Shown: piece after piece, positions 29,609 through 44,276 of the stretch | Layout: each line of letters opens with the position of its first letter | Numbering within the stretch: the stretch's first letter is position 1 | Source of the DNA: Candidatus Parcubacteria bacterium | GTDB lineage: Bacteria > Patescibacteriota > Patescibacteriia > Patescibacteriales > UBA12075 | DNA: 64,000 nucleotides | Direction of reading: 5' to 3' | Assembly: GCA_023132155.1 (NCBI GenBank) | Contig: JAGLYP010000026.1 | Span: 1,741 to 65,740, forward strand | Notes under the pieces: generated by a model | What the model was told of the DNA's origin: nothing | Databases searched by the model: none | The model's input: only the letters and a program-made list of their open reading frames with translations | Position numbers and translations under genes: made by a program

Positions 29609-30937
29609 ATGGATATAAAAAAAATAAAAGTCTCGCAAAGCCCCGGTGTTTATTATTTTTTAAATAAACAAGGAAAAATAATTTATATCGGGAAAGCGGC
29701 GAATTTGAAAAGCCGCGTGTTTTCGTATTGGCGCAAAAGCGCCGGTTTGAGCGGCGCCAAACAGGAAATGATGAGGCAAATCGCGGATATTAAGTGTGTT
29801 GAAACCGATTCGGAAATAGAAGCTTTGCTTTTAGAGTCAAATTTAATAAAAAAGCATCAGCCGAAATATAATATTGATTTAAGAGATGATAAACGCTTTG
29901 TTTATATCAAAATTTCAACAGAAGATGAAATCCCCGGGGTTTTTATTACCAGAAAAATCGAAAAGCAAGGAAAGTATTTTGGTCCTTTTATATCTGTGTT
30001 TGCCGTAAAAGATGCGTTAAAAGCAATTAGAAAAATATGGCCGTATTGTACAGAGCGAAAAATTAAAAATAAGCCTTGTTTTTACGCGCAAATCGGGCGT
30101 TGTGTCGGGGTTTGCGGCGGTAATTTTGATTTAAACGAATACAAAGAAAAAATTATTAAGCCGATTGTGATGTTTTTGGGTGGGAAGAAAAATGTGATAA
30201 TTAAGAATTATGAATTAAGAATTAATAATTTAGAGAAGAAATTAATAAATAATAAAAATGATGAGAAAATTTTGGAAGAGATTACGCGATTAAAGCGGAA
30301 ATTATTGAATTTAAAGTATATATTGGCGTGCGCGAATGTTATTGGAATTTCTGAAAAGTACGCGGCTGATGTGTTTGAGTTGGCTAAAGTTTTGGGTTTG
30401 CCTAAAGTGCCTGAGCGGATAGAAGGGTATGATATATCCAATATTTTCGGGCGTGAAGCGGTTGGGTCAATGGTGGTTTTTTCCAATGGCGAACCTGATA
30501 AAAGAGGTTATCGCAAGTTTAAAATAAAAGTTGGCAGTGAAATGGGGGATACGGGGATGTTGAAGGAGGTATTGGAAAGGAGATTGAAGTATGCAGTAAA
30601 TAATGGCTTGCGCTCCGAAGCTTCAGCGAAGGAGTGGCCTAGTCCCGATTTAATTATTATTGACGGCGGAAAGGGACAGCTTAATTTGGCGGTGAGATTA
30701 TTAAAAAAAGAAAAATTGGGTATTCCTGTGATAGCCGTGTCAAAAGGCAAGGGGTTAAGGGGCGCGAACGCGCTTGATAAGATATTTTTTCCGGGAGAAA
30801 AAAAGCCGCTTGAATTACCATTGGCTTCACCTGCTTTGCATATTATAAAACGTGTTCGCGATGAAGCGCATCGTTTCGCGATTAAATATCATCGGGAGTT
30901 GAGGAGGAAAAGTTTTGTGAAAAGTGCAAGAAACTAA
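29609..30937 (+). CDS. uvrC: excinuclease ABC subunit C, short form lacking the C-terminal (HhH)2 domain
   Basis: GIY-YIG 'GVYYFLNKQGKIIYIGKAANLKSRVFSYW' and 'IKKHQPKYN'. The endonuclease region carries 'IEGYDISN', 'PDLIIIDGGKGQL' and 'RVRDEAHRFAIKYHR'. The protein ends 13 aa later at 442 aa, versus ~600 typical. Confidence 0.85.
   Translation: MDIKKIKVSQSPGVYYFLNKQGKIIYIGKAANLKSRVFSYWRKSAGLSGAKQEMMRQIADIKCVETDSEIEALLLESNLIKKHQPKYNIDLRDDKRFVYIKISTEDEIPGVFITRKIEKQGKYFGPFISVFAVKDALKAIRKIWPYCTERKIKNKPCFYAQIGRCVGVCGGNFDLNEYKEKIIKPIVMFLGGKKNVIIKNYELRINNLEKKLINNKNDEKILEEITRLKRKLLNLKYILACANVIGISEKYAADVFELAKVLGLPKVPERIEGYDISNIFGREAVGSMVVFSNGEPDKRGYRKFKIKVGSEMGDTGMLKEVLERRLKYAVNNGLRSEASAKEWPSPDLIIIDGGKGQLNLAVRLLKKEKLGIPVIAVSKGKGLRGANALDKIFFPGEKKPLELPLASPALHIIKRVRDEAHRFAIKYHRELRRKSFVKSARN
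30197..30231 (+). repeat. in-frame NNAATTA heptamer array inside uvrC
   Basis: ATAATTA AGAATTA TGAATTA AGAATTA ATAATTT encodes 'IIKNYELRINNL'. Confidence 0.8.
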
Positions 30938-31024
30938 GTACATACGATTTTTTTGTTATCCGTAGGAACAGGGCAGTACCCTGTTCCTACGGATAACAAA
31001 AAAATCGTAGGTACTTAGTTTCTT
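30928..31024. terminator. 97-nt palindrome (30-bp perfect core stem); bidirectional terminator between convergent uvrC and uvrB
   Basis: acgatttttttgttatccgtaggaacaggg (30944-30973) is the exact reverse complement of 30979-31008. The outer arms aagaaactaagtac (30928-30941) and gtacttagtttctt (31011-31024) include the last two codons and the stop of both genes. Confidence 0.85.
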
Positions 31025-32820
31025 TTAATTGTCCGCGGCGTGATGCCGTGTTTTTTATTATAAGCAATTTGCATTTTTCTGCGCCTTTTAGTTTCGTTTA
31101 CAGCATAAGTAATTGCTGGAGTGATTTTATCGCCGTACATAATAACTCTGCCTTCAACGTGGCGGGAGGTGCGTCCCATTGTTTGCATAAGCGAGGTTTC
31201 ATTTCTTAAAAAGCCGGACATGTCAGCGTCAAGAATCGCGACCAACGATACTTCCGGCAAATCCAGACCTTCGCGCAGAAGATTGATTCCCACCAGCACA
31301 TCGTATTTGCCAAGTCTTAAGTCCCTGAGAATATCAACACGCTCCAAGGTTTTTATTTCCGAGTGCAGATATTGGACTTTGATTTTTTCTTCTGCCAAGT
31401 ATTCTGCCAGTTCTTCAGCCATTCTTTTAGTTAAAGTTGTTACCAATACCCGCTGTTTTTTAATAACTGTTTTTTTTATCTCTTTTAGCAAATCCGGAAT
31501 CTGCCCGGTGCTTGGACGAACCATAACTTCCGGATCCAAAAGGCCTGTCGGTCGGATAATTTGTTCAACGACTTGTTTTGATTTGCGTATTTCATAGTCT
31601 TTTGGCGTGGCGGAAACATAAATTACTTGATTGATTTTAGAATTAAATTCTTTAAAATTTAATGGGCGATTGTCTTTGGCGCTTGGGAGCCGGAAGCCGA
31701 AATCAATTAAAGTTTGTTTGCGGGATTGGTCGCCCGCGTACATGCCGCGAATTTGCGGAATACTAACGTGCGACTCATCAATAAATAATAAAAAATCTTT
31801 TGGAAAAAAATTCATAAGAGTGGATGGCGGTTTTCCCGGATTGCGGTTGCTTAAATGCCGCGAGTAATTTTCTATGCCATTACAATAGCCGATTTGTTCA
31901 ATCATTTCCAAGTCAAAATTTGTTTTTCGCTCCAAACGGTACGCTTCTACTTGTTTATTTTGTTTGCTTAATTCATTTAAACGTTTTTTAAGCTCCAGCC
32001 GGATATTTGTTAAAGCTTTTTCCATTCGGTCTTTAGGAGTCATAAAATGTTTAGCAGGCAGAATATTTATACTGTCCAGTTTTATCGCCTGCTTGTTTCT
32101 TAAGTCTTTTGCCCAAACCGGTTCAGTAGCGCCGGGTTTAACATTGAAAATATAAATATTTTCAATTTTATCGCCATACATTTCAATTCTTACAACCGAT
32201 TCGCCGGTAGATAAATGAATATCAATCATGCCGCCATTAACCCTGAATTGTCCTCTGTAAAACGCGGTATCGTTTCTTTCATATTGAATGCCGACCATCT
32301 GCCGCAAGAGTTCGTTTCTTTTTATTTTTTGCTTAACGCTGAAAATCCGCCCTAAATTTTCATAATCTTTTTTTTCTCCCAAACCGTAAATGCAGGAAAC
32401 GCTAGCCACTATAATTACATCCTTACGATTAATTAATGATTGCGTTGAGGCATGCCGCAGGCGGTCTATTTCTTCGTTAATTGTCGCTTCTTTTTCAATA
32501 TAAGTATCAGTTTGCGGAATATAGGCTTCCGGCTGGTAATAATCGTAATAAGACACAAAATAATGCACTGCCGCTTGAGGAAAAAATTGCTTAAATTCTC
32601 CGTATAGCTGCGCCGCCAAGGTTTTATTATGGGACATAATTAATGTCGGTTTTTGCGTTTTTTCTATGATATTAGCCATAGTAAAAGTTTTGCCGCTTCC
32701 GGTAACGCCAAGCAATGTTTGGTTTTTTTTGCCGGCCTTTAAGCCGGCTGTTAATTTTTTAATCGCAATCGGCTGATCACCGGCCGGCTTGTATTTTGAA
32801 TGAAGTTTAAATAAGCTCAT
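31015..32820 (-). CDS. uvrB: excinuclease ABC subunit B, short form lacking the C-terminal UVR domain
   Basis: '[15 protein letters not shown]', Walker A '[10 protein letters not shown]', and helicase motifs 'DESH' and 'QTMGRTSRH'. It ends at '...[15 protein letters not shown]' (601 aa), just after helicase domain 3. Confidence 0.9.
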
Positions 32821-35589: not shown

Positions 35590-38583
35590 ATGAAAAAACA
35601 AGAAAATAATGAGAATAAAATAAAAAAGAACCCTTTTGCGATAATGGAAGAGGATGTTTTAAAATTTTGGGAAAAGAATAAAATTTTTGAAAAATCAATT
35701 GAAAAAGAGGCGCCAAAAGGCGATTATGTTTTTTATGACGGGCCGCCGTTTATTACCGGATTGCCGCATTACGCGACGCTTCTTCCAAGTATTGCCAAAG
35801 ATATGGTGCCGCGCTATTGGACTATGAAAGGTTATAGAGTAGAGCGTGTTTGGGGCTGGGATTGCCATGGCTTGCCTGCGGAAAATAAGGTGGAAACAGA
35901 ATTGGGTTTGAAAAATAAAAAAGATATTGAAGAGCTGGGGGTTGATAAATTCGTAAACGCTTGCCGTGACTATGTTACCACCGGTTCAGAGCAATGGGAA
36001 TGGTATATTAATCGTATCGGCCGCTGGGTGGATATGAAAAACGCCTACAAAACCATGGATTTAAAATTTATGGAAAGCGTAATTTGGGCATTTAAAAAAT
36101 TGTATGACAAAGGCTTGATTTATGAGGGTTATCGTTCTTCACTGCATTGCCCTCGCTGCGCGACTCCGCTTTCAAAGTTTGAAATTACAATGGACGCGGG
36201 TTCTTATAAGGATGTTATTGATGATTCGGCTGTTGTTAAGTTTGAGATAAAAAATGTTAATAAAATATTGGCAGACTTGGAGCTTAGTTCCGAAGCTTCG
36301 GAGCTAAGCTCCGTGAATAGCAATGTTTATATTTTGGCTTGGACTACTACGCCTTGGACTTTGCCCGGAAATTTAGCTTTGGCGATTAATAAAAGTATTA
36401 AGTATCAAGTATTAAGTATTAACGATAATAATTATATTATTGCAAAAGACAGGGTTGAGGAAGTTTTTAAGGATAGAGGATATAAGATAATAAAAGAGTT
36501 TAAGGGTAAAGAATTGGTTGGGCTAGAATATGAGCCGTTGTTTGATTTGGGAAATAAAGAAATTTCTGAAAATAAGAATACATATAAAATATATCACGGA
36601 GATTTTGTTTCCACTGAGGAGGGGACGGGGGTCGTGCATATCGCGCCGAATTTCGGTGAAGATGATTTTGAATTTGGCAAAGCATATAAATTGCCAATGG
36701 TTGATTTAATGGATGAGATGGGAAATTATACTGAATTGGCGGGCGAGGAATGGAATGGATTGTATTTTAAAAAAGTTAATACAAAAGTTTTGGAAATATT
36801 GGGTGATAAATTATTTTTAAAGGAGCCCCACGAGCACTCATACCCCTTTTGTTACCGCTGTAATAGCCGTTTGATTTATAAAACTCAAAAGGCCTGGTAT
36901 TTGCGAATTTCAGAAATTAGAAATAAAATGCTTGAAAGCAATAAAGATATTAACTGGGTGCCGGAATATTTTAAAGAGGGCAGATTCAAATATAATCTGG
37001 AAAACGCGCCGGATTGGTGCTTGTCTCGTTCTCGGTATTGGGGTTCGCCGATTCCTGTTTGGCGCTGTGAGGAATGTGATGAAATTAAAGTTGCTGGTTC
37101 AGTTGAAGAAATTAAGAAATTAAGCAATGAAGAAGTTAAAGACTTACACAGGCCGGCAATTGATAAAGTTGAGTTTAAATGTGAAAAGTGCCAGGGAAAA
37201 ATGAAGCGAGTTGTTGAGGTTTTGGATTGCTGGTTTGAGTCTGGATCAATGCCTTTTGCGCAATTTCATTATCCTTTTGAACGAAAAAAAGAATGGAAAA
37301 ATATTTTTCCGGCAGATTTTATTATTGAATATACGGGCCAATTAAGAGGCTGGTTTTATTATTTGCATGTTTTGTCTAATGCCTTATTTGATTCTTTGGC
37401 ATTTAAGAATGTAATTGTATCCGGCGTACTCGCGGGAACAGATGGGCGCAAAATGAGCAAGTCATACGGCAATTATCCTGATTCAAAAAATACTTTAGAT
37501 AAATATGGGGCTGACGCTCTTAGATTGTATTTTATGTCATGTTCAATTATGGCCGGGGATGACACAACTTTAAGCGAAAAAGATATTCAGGATGCTTTGC
37601 GAAAAAATGTTATGCTTTTGTGGAATGTCACCAAATTTTATGATATGTTTTGCCATGATAAGGAAACCATAAAAGAAGATTTGGAATTTAAAAATATTTT
37701 AGATAGATGGATTGTTTTTAGGTTAGATCAGGTAGTTAAAGAAGTTACAGATAATATGGAAAAATATAGTTTACAAGGAGCGGCGCGTCCGATTACAGGG
37801 TTTATTGACGATTTGTCAACCTGGTATCTGAGGCGTTCTCGAGATCGTTTTAAAGGTGATGATAAAAATGATAAAATTCAGGCTTTAAAAACAACAAAAT
37901 ATGTTTTATTAACATTTTCCAAAGTGATCGCGCCGATTATGCCGTTTATTGCGGAACAAGTTTGGCAGAAAGTTAGCGGGAATGATTTTAAGAATGAGAA
38001 TAAATCAGTACATTTGGAGGGATGGCCTAAACAGGAATTACGAATTACACCCGTCAAGCGAATACAAGCGAATTACGAATTACGAATTTTGGAAGAAATG
38101 GAAATAGTTAGGAAAATTGTGGAATTGGCGCTTGCGAAAAGGGATGAGGCGGGAATAAGGGTGAGACAGCCGTTGAGCGAATTACGAATTACGAATTGTG
38201 AATTACGAGATGAATATATGGATTTAATTAAGAATGAATTGAATGTTAAAGATATAAAAACAGAAAAAGGCGATGGGGAATTAAATGTGAAATTAGATAT
38301 AAAATTAACACCGGAATTAAAACAGGAGGGTATGAAAAGAGAGATAGTCAGAACGGTTAACAGCATGCGCAAGAATATTGGCTTAACAATAAACGATAGG
38401 ATAGTTTTGTTCTGGCAAAGCGAAAATCAAGATATAATTCAAGCAATAAAAAAATATTCTAATGATATTCGCGGCGATGTTTTGGCTGATGAAATAAAAA
38501 ATGAAAAAAATGATGAAGTTGATATTCAGAAGGAAATAAATTTAGATTGTGGAATATTATTTTTAGGCATAAAAAATAAATAA
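35590..38583 (+). CDS. ileS: isoleucyl-tRNA synthetase
   Basis: 'FYDGPPFITGLPHYATLL' (HIGH region), 'WTTTPWTLPGN' (editing domain), 'KMSKS', and Zn-ribbon-like 'CYRC...CEEC' and 'CEKC'; 997 aa. Confidence 0.95.
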   Translation: MKKQENNENKIKKNPFAIMEEDVLKFWEKNKIFEKSIEKEAPKGDYVFYDGPPFITGLPHYATLLPSIAKDMVPRYWTMKGYRVERVWGWDCHGLPAENKVETELGLKNKKDIEELGVDKFVNACRDYVTTGSEQWEWYINRIGRWVDMKNAYKTMDLKFMESVIWAFKKLYDKGLIYEGYRSSLHCPRCATPLSKFEITMDAGSYKDVIDDSAVVKFEIKNVNKILADLELSSEASELSSVNSNVYILAWTTTPWTLPGNLALAINKSIKYQVLSINDNNYIIAKDRVEEVFKDRGYKIIKEFKGKELVGLEYEPLFDLGNKEISENKNTYKIYHGDFVSTEEGTGVVHIAPNFGEDDFEFGKAYKLPMVDLMDEMGNYTELAGEEWNGLYFKKVNTKVLEILGDKLFLKEPHEHSYPFCYRCNSRLIYKTQKAWYLRISEIRNKMLESNKDINWVPEYFKEGRFKYNLENAPDWCLSRSRYWGSPIPVWRCEECDEIKVAGSVEEIKKLSNEEVKDLHRPAIDKVEFKCEKCQGKMKRVVEVLDCWFESGSMPFAQFHYPFERKKEWKNIFPADFIIEYTGQLRGWFYYLHVLSNALFDSLAFKNVIVSGVLAGTDGRKMSKSYGNYPDSKNTLDKYGADALRLYFMSCSIMAGDDTTLSEKDIQDALRKNVMLLWNVTKFYDMFCHDKETIKEDLEFKNILDRWIVFRLDQVVKEVTDNMEKYSLQGAARPITGFIDDLSTWYLRRSRDRFKGDDKNDKIQALKTTKYVLLTFSKVIAPIMPFIAEQVWQKVSGNDFKNENKSVHLEGWPKQELRITPVKRIQANYELRILEEMEIVRKIVELALAKRDEAGIRVRQPLSELRITNCELRDEYMDLIKNELNVKDIKTEKGDGELNVKLDIKLTPELKQEGMKREIVRTVNSMRKNIGLTINDRIVLFWQSENQDIIQAIKKYSNDIRGDVLADEIKNEKNDEVDIQKEINLDCGILFLGIKNK
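36279..36312. repeat. 34-nt near-perfect palindrome in frame inside ileS
   Basis: ggagcttagttccgaag|cttcggagctaagctcc has one mismatch pair and encodes 'LELSSEASELSS' in the variable linker before WTTTPWTL. Confidence 0.8.
38034..38089 (+). repeat. in-frame heptamer (CGAATTA) array 1 inside ileS
   Basis: GGAATTA CGAATTA [3 degenerate units in phase] CGAATTA CGAATTA CGAATTT encodes 'ELRITPVKRIQANYELRIL'. Confidence 0.8.
38178..38205 (+). repeat. in-frame heptamer (CGAATTA) array 2 inside ileS
   Basis: CGAATTA CGAATTA CGAATTG TGAATTA encodes 'ELRITNCELR'. Confidence 0.8.
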
Positions 38584-42777: not shown

Positions 42778-44223
42778 ATGAAAATAAAATTATCAGAAAA
42801 AAAATTAAAAGACATCAAAGCGGATTGCGAGATTGTTTTTGTTGTGAACAAAAATTTAGGACACAAATTTATTCGCGATAAAGAGATTTTAAATGAAATG
42901 AATTTTAAGGGCAAGGCTGATGAGGTTTTGTTGTTGCCGGAAAAGAAGAGAATGTATGTTGGGATTGGCGATTTAGAGCTTGAAAGTTTGCGTTGCGCGA
43001 CAGCGTTAGCGGCGCGAACTATCGTGAAAAGCAAAATCACGTCATTAAAAATCGCTTTATATTTTGCTGATGATGCTGGGAGAGGAATTAAAGCTTTAAG
43101 CGAGGGATTTTTGCTTGGCGCTTACAGCTACCAAAAATACAAATCAAAACCTACGAAAAATAACATTAAACAAATAATAATTTCCAGTGAAAATTATTAT
43201 AATAAAAAAATTGAAATAAAAAATTTAGAAGAAAAAATCAAAGAAGCCGAAATTATTTCTAAGAGCGTAAATTTTGTCCGTGATATCGTGAATGAGCCGC
43301 CGTCTGATTTGACTCCGTTAAAATTTTCTGAAATCGCAAAGGCGGAAGCGAAGGAAAACAATTTAACAATAAAAATTTTAGGCAAAAAAGAATTGGAAAA
43401 ATTGGGAATGGGAGCGTTTTTGGCGGTTAATCAGGCGAGTGCTTATCCGCCGTGGCTTATATATTTGAATTATAAACCCAAAAACGCGAAAAAGAAGATT
43501 ATATTAGTCGGCAAGGGTTTGACTTATGATACCGGCGGACTGAGTTTAAAATTGGGCGACGGCATGCTGACGATGAAAATGGATATGGGCGGAGCTGGCG
43601 CGATTTTGGGAGTAATTATGGCAATAAGCCAATTAAAATTGCCAATTGAAGTTCAGGCGATTATCGGCGCTACGGAAAACGCGATTGGCAAAGACGCGTA
43701 TAAGCCGGATGATGTTTTAAAAGCAATGAATGGAAAAACAATTGAAGTGAGGGATACTGACGCGGAAGGCAGGCTGGTTTTGGCTGATTGTTTGTGTTAC
43801 GCGCAAAAAGAAAATTTTGATTATATTATTGATATAGCCACGCTGACCGGAGCATCTATGGTTGCTTTGGGCGAATACACAAGCGCGGTTATGGGGTTTA
43901 ATCAAGACTTGAATCATAAAATATTAAAATCAGCGGAAAAATCGGGGGAGCTTGTCGGCATTTTGCCGTTTAATAAATATTTGCCTAAATTATTAAAAAG
44001 CGAAATTGCGGATATTAATAATCTTCCTTCTTCCAGATATGGCAGAGCAATTACAGCCGGACTGTTTTTAGGAGAATTTATTGAAAAAAGGAATAAGAAA
44101 AAATGGGCGCATATTGATATCGCCGGTCCGGCTTTTAAAGACAAACCTTGGGGAGTAAATCCGGTTGGCGCCAGCGGAGCCGGAACGCGCTTGTTAATTG
44201 AATGGATTAAGGGTGTTTTGTAA
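42778..44223 (+). CDS. pepA: leucyl aminopeptidase (M17)
   Basis: 'VGKGLTYDTGGLSLK', 'MKMDMGGAGA' and 'VRDTDAEGRLVLAD' (the NTDAEGRL motif). Confidence 0.9.
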   Translation: MKIKLSEKKLKDIKADCEIVFVVNKNLGHKFIRDKEILNEMNFKGKADEVLLLPEKKRMYVGIGDLELESLRCATALAARTIVKSKITSLKIALYFADDAGRGIKALSEGFLLGAYSYQKYKSKPTKNNIKQIIISSENYYNKKIEIKNLEEKIKEAEIISKSVNFVRDIVNEPPSDLTPLKFSEIAKAEAKENNLTIKILGKKELEKLGMGAFLAVNQASAYPPWLIYLNYKPKNAKKKIILVGKGLTYDTGGLSLKLGDGMLTMKMDMGGAGAILGVIMAISQLKLPIEVQAIIGATENAIGKDAYKPDDVLKAMNGKTIEVRDTDAEGRLVLADCLCYAQKENFDYIIDIATLTGASMVALGEYTSAVMGFNQDLNHKILKSAEKSGELVGILPFNKYLPKLLKSEIADINNLPSSRYGRAITAGLFLGEFIEKRNKKKWAHIDIAGPAFKDKPWGVNPVGASGAGTRLLIEWIKGVL

Positions 44224-44230
44224 ATTGGAT

Positions 44231-44276
44231 AAAAAAATTGTAGGGAACAAAAATTTTTGTTTCTTACAATTTTTTT
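44231..44276 (+). terminator. long-stem rho-independent terminator
   Basis: AAAAATTGTAGGGAACAAAA-loop-TTTTGTTTCTTACAATTTTT with two G.U pairs, followed by a T-run. Confidence 0.75.

Follow-up and report, generated by a model that had tools for sequence, protein, structure and literature searches.

Why do two convergent DNA repair genes, uvrC and uvrB, finish on identical codons inside one long palindrome, and did that palindrome deprive both proteins of their usual C-terminal domains? The question is raised by a 64-kb stretch of DNA from a Candidatus Parcubacteria bacterium (assembly GCA_023132155.1, contig JAGLYP010000026.1, positions 1,741 to 65,740), called the window below. A preliminary description made from its sequence proposed either that a palindromic element had entered and truncated both genes at once or that the lineage has a minimal UvrBC of its own. 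The answer that we consider probable combines three elements: a repetitive extragenic palindromic (REP) element lies between convergent uvrC and uvrB, a mirrored copy of the uvrB end has been added to it, and the absence of the domains is lineage-wide. Coordinates are positions in the window, L-numbers designate loci fetched from relatives, and P-numbers homologous proteins. The features on which the argument depends are as follows.

29609..30937, plus strand: uvrC, 442 aa, with a GIY-YIG domain, a middle region and an RNase H-like endonuclease domain, and no (HhH)2.
30928..31024, no strand: the whole palindrome, 97 nt, with 46-nt arms, one mismatch and a 5-nt loop.
30928..30944, no strand: left outer arm AAGAAACTAAGTACATA, an inverted copy of 31008-31024 at 16/17 positions, providing the R, N and stop of uvrC.
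30945..30961, no strand: left REP extension CGATTTTTTTGTTATCC, whose core-proximal TTTGTTATYC is also found at the unrelated loci L020 and L029.
30962..30990, no strand: REP core GTAGGAACAGGGCAGTACCCTGTTCCTAC, 29 nt, with a GTAG tag readable on either strand.
30991..31007, no strand: right REP extension GGATAACAAAAAAATCG, common to the L005, L006 and L118 junctions and found elsewhere at L029.
31008..31024, no strand: right outer arm TAGGTACTTAGTTTCTT, homologous to the uvrB ends of relatives without the left copy.
31015..32820, minus strand: uvrB, 601 aa, with a complete helicase core and neither linker nor UVR domain.

The 97-nt palindrome is as large as first described. Positions 30928-30973 pair with 30979-31024 around the loop CAGTA, and the single A/G mismatch (30942/31010) separates an outer perfect stem of 14 bp from an inner one of 31 bp; the perfect core stem noticed earlier is thus present, at 31 bp rather than the 30 bp then claimed. 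The identity of the two gene ends also holds, since uvrC and uvrB each finish AGA AAC TAA within the outer arms. The left outer arm holds the last two uvrC codons and the stop (30929-30937). Its counterpart on the right comprises 7 nt of uvrB 3′ flank, the stop codon (31015-17), the N codon (31018-20), the R codon (31021-23) and one further nucleotide. As RNA the palindrome folds at −74.6 kcal/mol (z = −15.2; 0/200 shuffles as stable), as DNA at −50.6 kcal/mol (z = −16.1), and it is by a wide margin the longest inverted repeat of the window. Locus-specific sequence is confined to the outermost 17 nt of each arm; a REP element makes up the rest, and an inverted duplication peculiar to this site has probably lengthened it.

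To judge by its sequence, the palindrome has at its centre a REP element of the GTAG type, a class of repeats processed by REP-associated tyrosine transposases (RAYT; HUH/Y1). Such REPs are palindromes of 20-40 bp that can fold into a stem-loop, and the tetranucleotide GTAG or GTGG precedes the stem on its 5′ side at a distance of 0-2 nt (PMC6006769, PMC3733652). The consensus of the 29-nt core, GTAGGAACAGGGCANTGCCCTGTTCCTAC, is palindromic through its centre and forms a stem of 12-13 bp with a loop of 3-5 nt; 97.6% of its cells are paired, with compensatory UA-to-CG changes at pair 2. The core begins with GTAG, and variants starting with GCAG or GCAA carry compensating changes at the 3′ side. 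An exact-pattern scan (GYARGAACAGGG-N5-CCYTGTTCYTRC) of one genome per species gave 28 loci in 15 assemblies, nearly all of them Patescibacteria. Three metagenome-assembled genomes (MAGs) hold 5, 5 and 4 copies on different contigs, the genomes of the closest relatives, L003 and L004, being included. A longer form with TTTGTTATYC/GRATAACAAA arms recurs at the unrelated loci L020, L029 and L033, and the extension therefore belongs to a longer REP subfamily. Copies are also found in frame inside Pfam-confirmed genes, where the core reads VGTG[HQ]CPVPT:

L012, 7218-7246: core copy in recG.
L010, 3516-3544: core copy in fmt.
L018, 812-840: core copy in fmt.
L019, 2709-2737: core copy in murG.
L013, 476-504: core copy in a glycosyltransferase gene.

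The other intragenic reading frame of the REP is RNRA[LMV]PCSY. This distribution can be set beside that of known REPs, whose termini often give flanking open reading frames (ORFs) their TAG stop, which lie within 20 bp of both ORFs when placed between convergent genes, and whose intragenic copies are frequent in repair genes, uvrA and uvrB among them (Di Nocera et al., PMC3733652). Three other identities were considered and rejected. The conserved 13-mer as a DNA-uptake sequence is ruled out by its density (one pair and no unpaired single copies in the 64-kb window) together with the RAYT association. Nor do the copies that stand in tandem in L034 and L008 make up a CRISPR-like array, being short local duplications without spacers of regular length. 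The whole 97 nt is not one mobile unit either: no other locus has the outer arm, and the uvrB ends of relatives are homologous to the right one.

REP copies of this family accompany RAYT genes. In L021, positions 191-754 encode a 187-aa Y1_Tnp protein (Pfam 27.2 bits, gathering score 23) with one REP 33 nt upstream, another 15 nt downstream and a third inside the gene (491-519). The sole PDB match of this protein is E. coli TnpArep (4ER8), with which the HUH, W-Q-P-R-F, IRN and Y..NPVK motifs align; W94, Q95 and R104 have been implicated in GTAG recognition (PMC6006769). Elsewhere, a REP lies 36 nt upstream of the RAYT gene in L121 and 33 nt downstream in L023, and L119 has a variant copy upstream and a doublet downstream. 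RAYT homologues with an adjacent or internal REP are present in L004 (directly upstream of uvrB), L023, L034, L119 and L121. The family comprises 1703 homologues; the named sources among the top 120 are Patescibacteria groups, some of the proteins are JGI-labelled RayT, and 98 of these 120 match both simple RAYT motifs. None of the top 120 is borne by the window's own 769-kb scaffold. As a separate observation, the coding sequence of 32 of the 120 closest RAYT homologues (P0241-P0360) itself contains the REP-encoded peptide GTG[HQ]CPVP, usually just past the HUH motif (about residues 86-107) and in some proteins in 2-3 copies. REPIN-like composites of about 150 nt, in which two REP hairpins enclose a spacer of about 95 nt, were also seen in L119 (1758-1906, with 2178-2330; inside the RAYT gene and just downstream of it) and in L004 (6280-6424).

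It had been suggested to look for the palindrome at orthologous loci, and its core is indeed found there, the same REP abutting uvrC in relatives. In L004, L115, L116 and L118 the uvrC stop is the TAG of the REP's GTAG, and uvrC of L005 and L006 continues through the REP. Two UvrC homologues end in the translated hairpin core (..RRNRAVPCSYG and ..RKNRALPCSCK), which shows that relatives have the core at their own uvrC-uvrB junction. Orthologous sites both with and without the REP were found, L004 and L005 carrying it and L003 not, as would fit a unit mobilized by its RAYT. At the empty site of L003 (4348-4430; the same in L117), an 83-nt spacer of almost pure A+T with a weak inverted repeat of its own stands in place of the REP, and the TIKKN end of UvrB is kept.

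The outer arms have a different distribution. None of the eight uvrC-uvrB junctions sampled from close relatives contains the left outer arm. Among 118 loci, the sequence of the arm, AAGAAACTAAGTAC, has only one other occurrence, on the right-hand side in L005. There the right outer arm is identical to that of the window; L006 and L118 have homologous versions, and no left counterpart exists in any of the three. UvrB ends in TIK[KR][NG]-stop in every member of the clade, including the REP-free L003. Since these uvrB ends are shared by relatives without the left arm, the left arm is probably the copy, and the RN-stop of uvrC would mirror that of uvrB. The right flank differs at about half of its positions in L006 and L118, and the two outer arms of the window match each other at 16/17. 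In a neighbor-joining (NJ) tree of UvrB the arm-less lineages are paraphyletic to the window and placed basally. Tree and junction alignments together are suggestive of a gain rather than a loss of the left arm.

Template switching is the likely cause of this gain, as far as can be read from the compared junctions. During replication, fold-back priming at the REP hairpin, an intramolecular template switch, would have produced the left outer arm as an inverted copy of the right one. Such an event would have replaced the original spacer, terminus and stop of uvrC with the mirror image of the uvrB RN-stop, and that both genes share the reading frame would be a one-in-three outcome. Hairpins formed or lengthened by template switching, and proteins altered by it, are documented (PMC8794818, PMC13100816, PMC8604942).

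The explanation that survives best beside a gain of the arm is that the long palindrome is the older state, either in its 97-nt form or as a native uvrC end followed by a spacer and a full REP, and that the relatives lost the left arm; we regard it as possible but unlikely. The strands would have slipped between two TTTTGT repeats, and the resulting deletion would have joined uvrC directly to the REP, a route that we judge unlikely to the same degree. Long palindromes are prone to deletion, and removal of 38 nt, from the TTTTGT of the uvrC FV codons to the TTTTGT of the REP arm, gives the L005 junction AAA..TTTGTTATCCGTAGG. A loss would also explain why REP-derived codons mimic the native F-V. 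Against it, six lineages (L004, L115, L116, L118, L005 and L006) are arm-less and paraphyletic to the window in the UvrB tree, and L005 has the window's exact right flank but a deleted left side, so that recurrent deletion would be needed. In addition, the match of 16/17 between the arms, as against the roughly half-diverged flank in L006 and L118, argues for a recent copy.

Several observations weigh against our reading of a REP lengthened by a mirrored gene end, and of a hairpin with a role in RNA. No RAYT gene, even by tblastn, and no second copy of the REP core was found in the 64-kb window. GTAG here pairs with CTAC, whereas in classical REPs the GTAG tag is unpaired. The L021 protein scores 61.2 bits (E = 1e-16) against NCBIfam NF047646, ‘REP-associated tyrosine transposase’, below the curated cutoff of 80; this query carries a 10-residue REP insert. 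The internal branches of the UvrB tree are short, and an ancestor resembling the window would acquire precisely the L005 junction through the 38-nt deletion described above. The promoter/terminator consensus scan does not call the palindrome an intrinsic terminator, a structure in which a U-run comes right behind a G+C-rich stem; the T-run 5′ and the A-run 3′ of the core lie within the stem, and the tails past the full stem are merely T-rich. Finally, the REP and right flank are identical at 64/64 positions between the window (30945-31024) and L005 (3627-3705). The flanking coding DNA of these two is 80% (uvrC) and 85% (uvrB) identical, and simple vertical descent is therefore insufficient to account for the patch, which points to strong constraint or recent exchange. 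L005 thus gives conflicting signals, with the right flank of the window and yet a deleted left side.

What the hairpin does as RNA has to be considered together with the possibility that it is an ordinary bidirectional intrinsic terminator that evolved in place, with no mobile DNA involved. The two convergent transcripts probably both have their 3′ end in the hairpin, which in the RNA would mark and protect these ends. It lies exactly between two convergent stops, is very stable and is followed by T-rich sequence on both strands, and the relative L060 has a classical terminator (A-run, stem, T-run) at the same junction, all of which would suit a terminator of local origin. We nevertheless hold such an origin to be very unlikely, because the same 29-nt core is found at 28 other loci, within genes and around RAYT genes, because the consensus scan makes no terminator call here, and because the two genes of the outgroup L035 are only 11 nt apart, with no hairpin between them. 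Enterobacterial REPs stabilize mRNA and attenuate transcription (PMC3733652). Both stop codons are paired in the base of the stem, so the hairpin may dampen translation termination. REPs within about 15 nt of a stop codon reportedly lower expression through ribosome stalling. A search of 30700-31250 against Rfam returned only sub-threshold hairpins of eukaryotic miRNA precursors (best 58.6 bits, gathering score 74). Apart from the palindrome, a terminator-like hairpin with a T-run, CGCGGCGTGATGCCGTG TTTTTTATTA, is found 10 nt past it, in the sense of uvrC and within the uvrB coding region (31034-31050, plus strand). The relatives sampled within the clade have preserved it, and the outgroup L035 has a slightly diverged version; the opposite strand of this hairpin encodes KKHGITPR of UvrB.

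The second part of the question concerns the missing domains, and here the preliminary description was right about the absences themselves. UvrB is identified by the equivalog models TIGR00631 (943 bits, cutoff 750) and NF003673 (963, cutoff 743). Its alignment covers residues 5-590 of the Bacillus protein (658 aa) and positions 2-588 of the 653 of the hidden Markov model, a C-terminal loss of about 65-70 residues (linker plus UVR). The end of the alignment at 590/658 and the lack of any PF02151 (UVR) match in the window UvrB bear out the absence of the UVR domain. UvrC scores 359 bits against the curated model TIGR00194 (cutoff 285), with Pfam matches to PF01541 (GIY-YIG) and PF08459 (RNase H-like nuclease). 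Its alignment to 3c65, the 226-aa C-terminal half of UvrC, covers positions 5-173, and (HhH)2 is accordingly absent, as had been stated; no HhH match was found. A Pfam search for UVR and HhH in the two window proteins gave nothing even at E ≤ 1. A further element in uvrC had been noted in the region of its UVR domain:

30199..30234, plus strand: 7-nt periodic DNA, AATTAAG x 5.1, within uvrC, encoding part of a conserved helix.

The periodicity at the UVR position is real, but the idea that the array occupies the region as something foreign does not stand. The encoded segment (IIKNYELRIxNLEK; conserved helix IIKNYELRINNLEK) is kept at the protein level across relatives, and in an AlphaFold model of moderate quality (mean pLDDT 65.5; about 76-85 in region 194-241) it makes up the first of the two helices (H194-214, H219-241) of a helix-turn-helix at the canonical UVR position. 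Being conserved in relatives and a helix in the model, it is no foreign insert. UvrC may thus, if the model is correct, keep a degenerate UVR-like hairpin while UvrB has lost the partner domain.

The same short forms are found throughout the lineage. For UvrC, every one of the 120 closest homologues (57-100% identity, 417-516 aa) stops 8-20 residues past the YHR motif. Almost all of the closest 120 UvrB homologues have 600-618 aa, most ending ..TPRTIKAKFHESII, and PF02151 was detected in none of these 120. Among 80 metagenome relatives of UvrC (31-67% identity), the 79 complete ones all end 0-18 residues beyond the end of the query, and most have no uvrB downstream; HhH was matched at E ≤ 1 in none of 14 UvrC relatives searched. 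Proteins equally short are encoded in L003 and L117, where the 83-nt AT-rich spacer forms no such hairpin, and in the outgroup L035, where 11 nt without a hairpin separate uvrC from uvrB. On this comparison of homologues, the absence of UVR from UvrB and of (HhH)2 from UvrC is ancestral, lineage-wide and causally unlinked to the palindrome. The suggestion that a minimal UvrBC is a lineage-specific trait thereby gains support.

The truncation first proposed, in which a single palindromic element entered two overlapping or convergent genes and removed about 65 UvrB and 55 UvrC residues, is by contrast highly improbable. In its favor, a mobile palindromic element does sit at the junction, and UvrB of the clade carrying it is 6-7 residues shorter. 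It fails because, as the preliminary description itself had named as the finding that would speak against it, relatives without the palindrome are equally short: the 120 closest homologues of each gene and 79/79 distant UvrC relatives are just as short, as are proteins at the hairpin-free L003, L117 and L035 and those encoded where uvrB is not adjacent. Relics of UVR or HhH beyond the palindrome, which had been thought worth looking for, have no room there, since the other gene occupies the sequence past each stop. What stands of the idea that the element shortened the genes is small, namely 6-7 UvrB residues at most and an altered uvrC end, with no loss of a whole domain. Most Parcubacteria UvrB proteins have a conserved ..KFHESI[IV] tail (TIKAKFHESII in the wider lineage; ..AKFHESIG-stop in the outgroup L035), and those of the window, L003-L006, L115, L117 and L118 end in TIK[KR][NG], 6-7 residues shorter than in the wider lineage. 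In the REP-bearing clade the last uvrC codons have been rewritten. Arrival of the REP may therefore have cost UvrB its last 6-7 residues at most. An assembly artefact, fold-back or inverted-repeat misjoin, is scarcely credible: palindromes do break de Bruijn assemblies, and L002 and L116 end inside the hairpin, but an independent Logan assembly (L002) has the same left arm and KSARN-stop tail, an identical protein is found on 6 contigs, the one-base difference between the arms makes them two distinct sequences, and the 46-nt arm is shorter than a read, with both flanks running into intact, different genes.

If the left arm at this locus was added by copying, the same could have happened at other REPs. 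Locus-specific complementary flanks of at least 4 nt were found at 12 of 32 REP copies, compared with 2% in a shuffled-partner control, and the stem is extended furthest in L033, by 28 nt, and in the window, by 34 nt if one mismatch is allowed. The intragenic copies that had been picked out by eye in real genes (L010, L012, L013, L018, L019 and L021 491) have no complementary flanks; long ones are found at many of the intergenic copies. We would tentatively propose, as an idea more likely to be wrong than right, that REP hairpins seed outward growth of palindromes, repeatedly inverting host flank, building long hairpins and rewriting the C-termini and stops of neighbors. Growth would proceed by fold-back or template-switch synthesis at the hairpin, or by RAYT strand joining on a substrate that reads on both strands.

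Three further observations concern extended or unexplained palindromes. Extended flanks are present at L022, L027, L029, L030, L031, L033 and L009, several of them resembling bidirectional terminators (A-run, stem, T-run) with the REP at the apex. In the window, a 46-nt palindrome (AAAAAAATTGTAGGGAACAAAAA/TTTTTGTTTCTTACAATTTTTTT; 44231-44276) with an A-run, a stem and a T-run lies 8 nt past the gene 42778-44223, and its ends, GTAGGGAACA...TGTTTCTTAC, resemble a decayed copy of the REP core. An imperfect palindrome at 36263-36328, with 35-nt arms that are 77% complementary, codes for ..LADLELSSEASELSSVNSN... within an ORF for a 997-aa isoleucyl-tRNA synthetase-like protein (35590-38583) and may be an intragenic palindromic insert.

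Among known systems, the GTAG-type REP/RAYT pairs, or REPtrons, of E. coli, Pseudomonas and Stenotrophomonas are the closest parallel. They too consist of a short palindrome with a 5′ GTAG in several copies per genome, as seen here in relatives of the window, mostly just past gene 3′ ends and between convergent genes, with termini that give TAG stops and in-frame copies in repair genes, and of an HUH/Y1 transposase gene flanked by the same repeats, the W-Q-R residues being conserved. The present family differs in its host, Patescibacteria, in its low copy number (4-6 exact copies per MAG), in the pairing of GTAG with CTAC, by which the unit reads as a REP on both strands, and in the REP-encoded peptide that many of its RAYT genes carry in their own coding sequence. 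The lengthening of the stem by a near-exact inverted copy of a flank, with the other side rewritten, is like quasipalindrome mutation by template switching (PMC8794818, PMC13100816, PMC8604942), except that here the seed is a mobile REP, the copied tract holds the last codons and stop of a gene, and the event is deduced from comparison. Rickettsia palindromic elements (RPE), like intragenic REPs, are palindromic repeats tolerated in frame in essential genes (PMC3733652). The unit here differs from RPE in being 29 nt long, against roughly 100-150 nt for RPE-1, and in its link to RAYT. For the proteins, E. coli UvrB*, a C-terminally clipped form, likewise has no UVR/UvrC-binding domain, and Cho, a UvrC homologue without the C-terminal half, likewise has no (HhH)2. 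The 3′ incision in E. coli depends on contact between the two UVR domains, and Cho incises without it. Unlike UvrB* and Cho, the short forms described here are the only versions, conserved and lineage-wide, and unlike Cho, UvrC here retains the RNase H-like domain for 5′ incision and a helical hairpin at the UVR position. Literature searches on REP or RAYT in Patescibacteria or Parcubacteria, and on UvrB or UvrC in the candidate phyla radiation, returned nothing relevant.

These results add a REP/RAYT system to the Patescibacteria (candidate phyla radiation). The REP family is unusually clean, one fully symmetric 29-nt unit being found in intergenic hairpins, in essential genes and in the gene of its own transposase, and it is a possible marker and a model for how very small genomes tolerate selfish hairpins. 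The uvrC-uvrB junction offers what is probably a natural example of a hairpin lengthened by an inverted gene end, through which the convergent neighbor gains an identical final dipeptide and stop codon. Proteins could acquire new C-termini in this modest but genuine way. Finally, a large bacterial lineage would appear, from the homologues compared here, to have UvrB without UVR and UvrC without (HhH)2, which would mean either that the two proteins dock differently or that their capacity is reduced.

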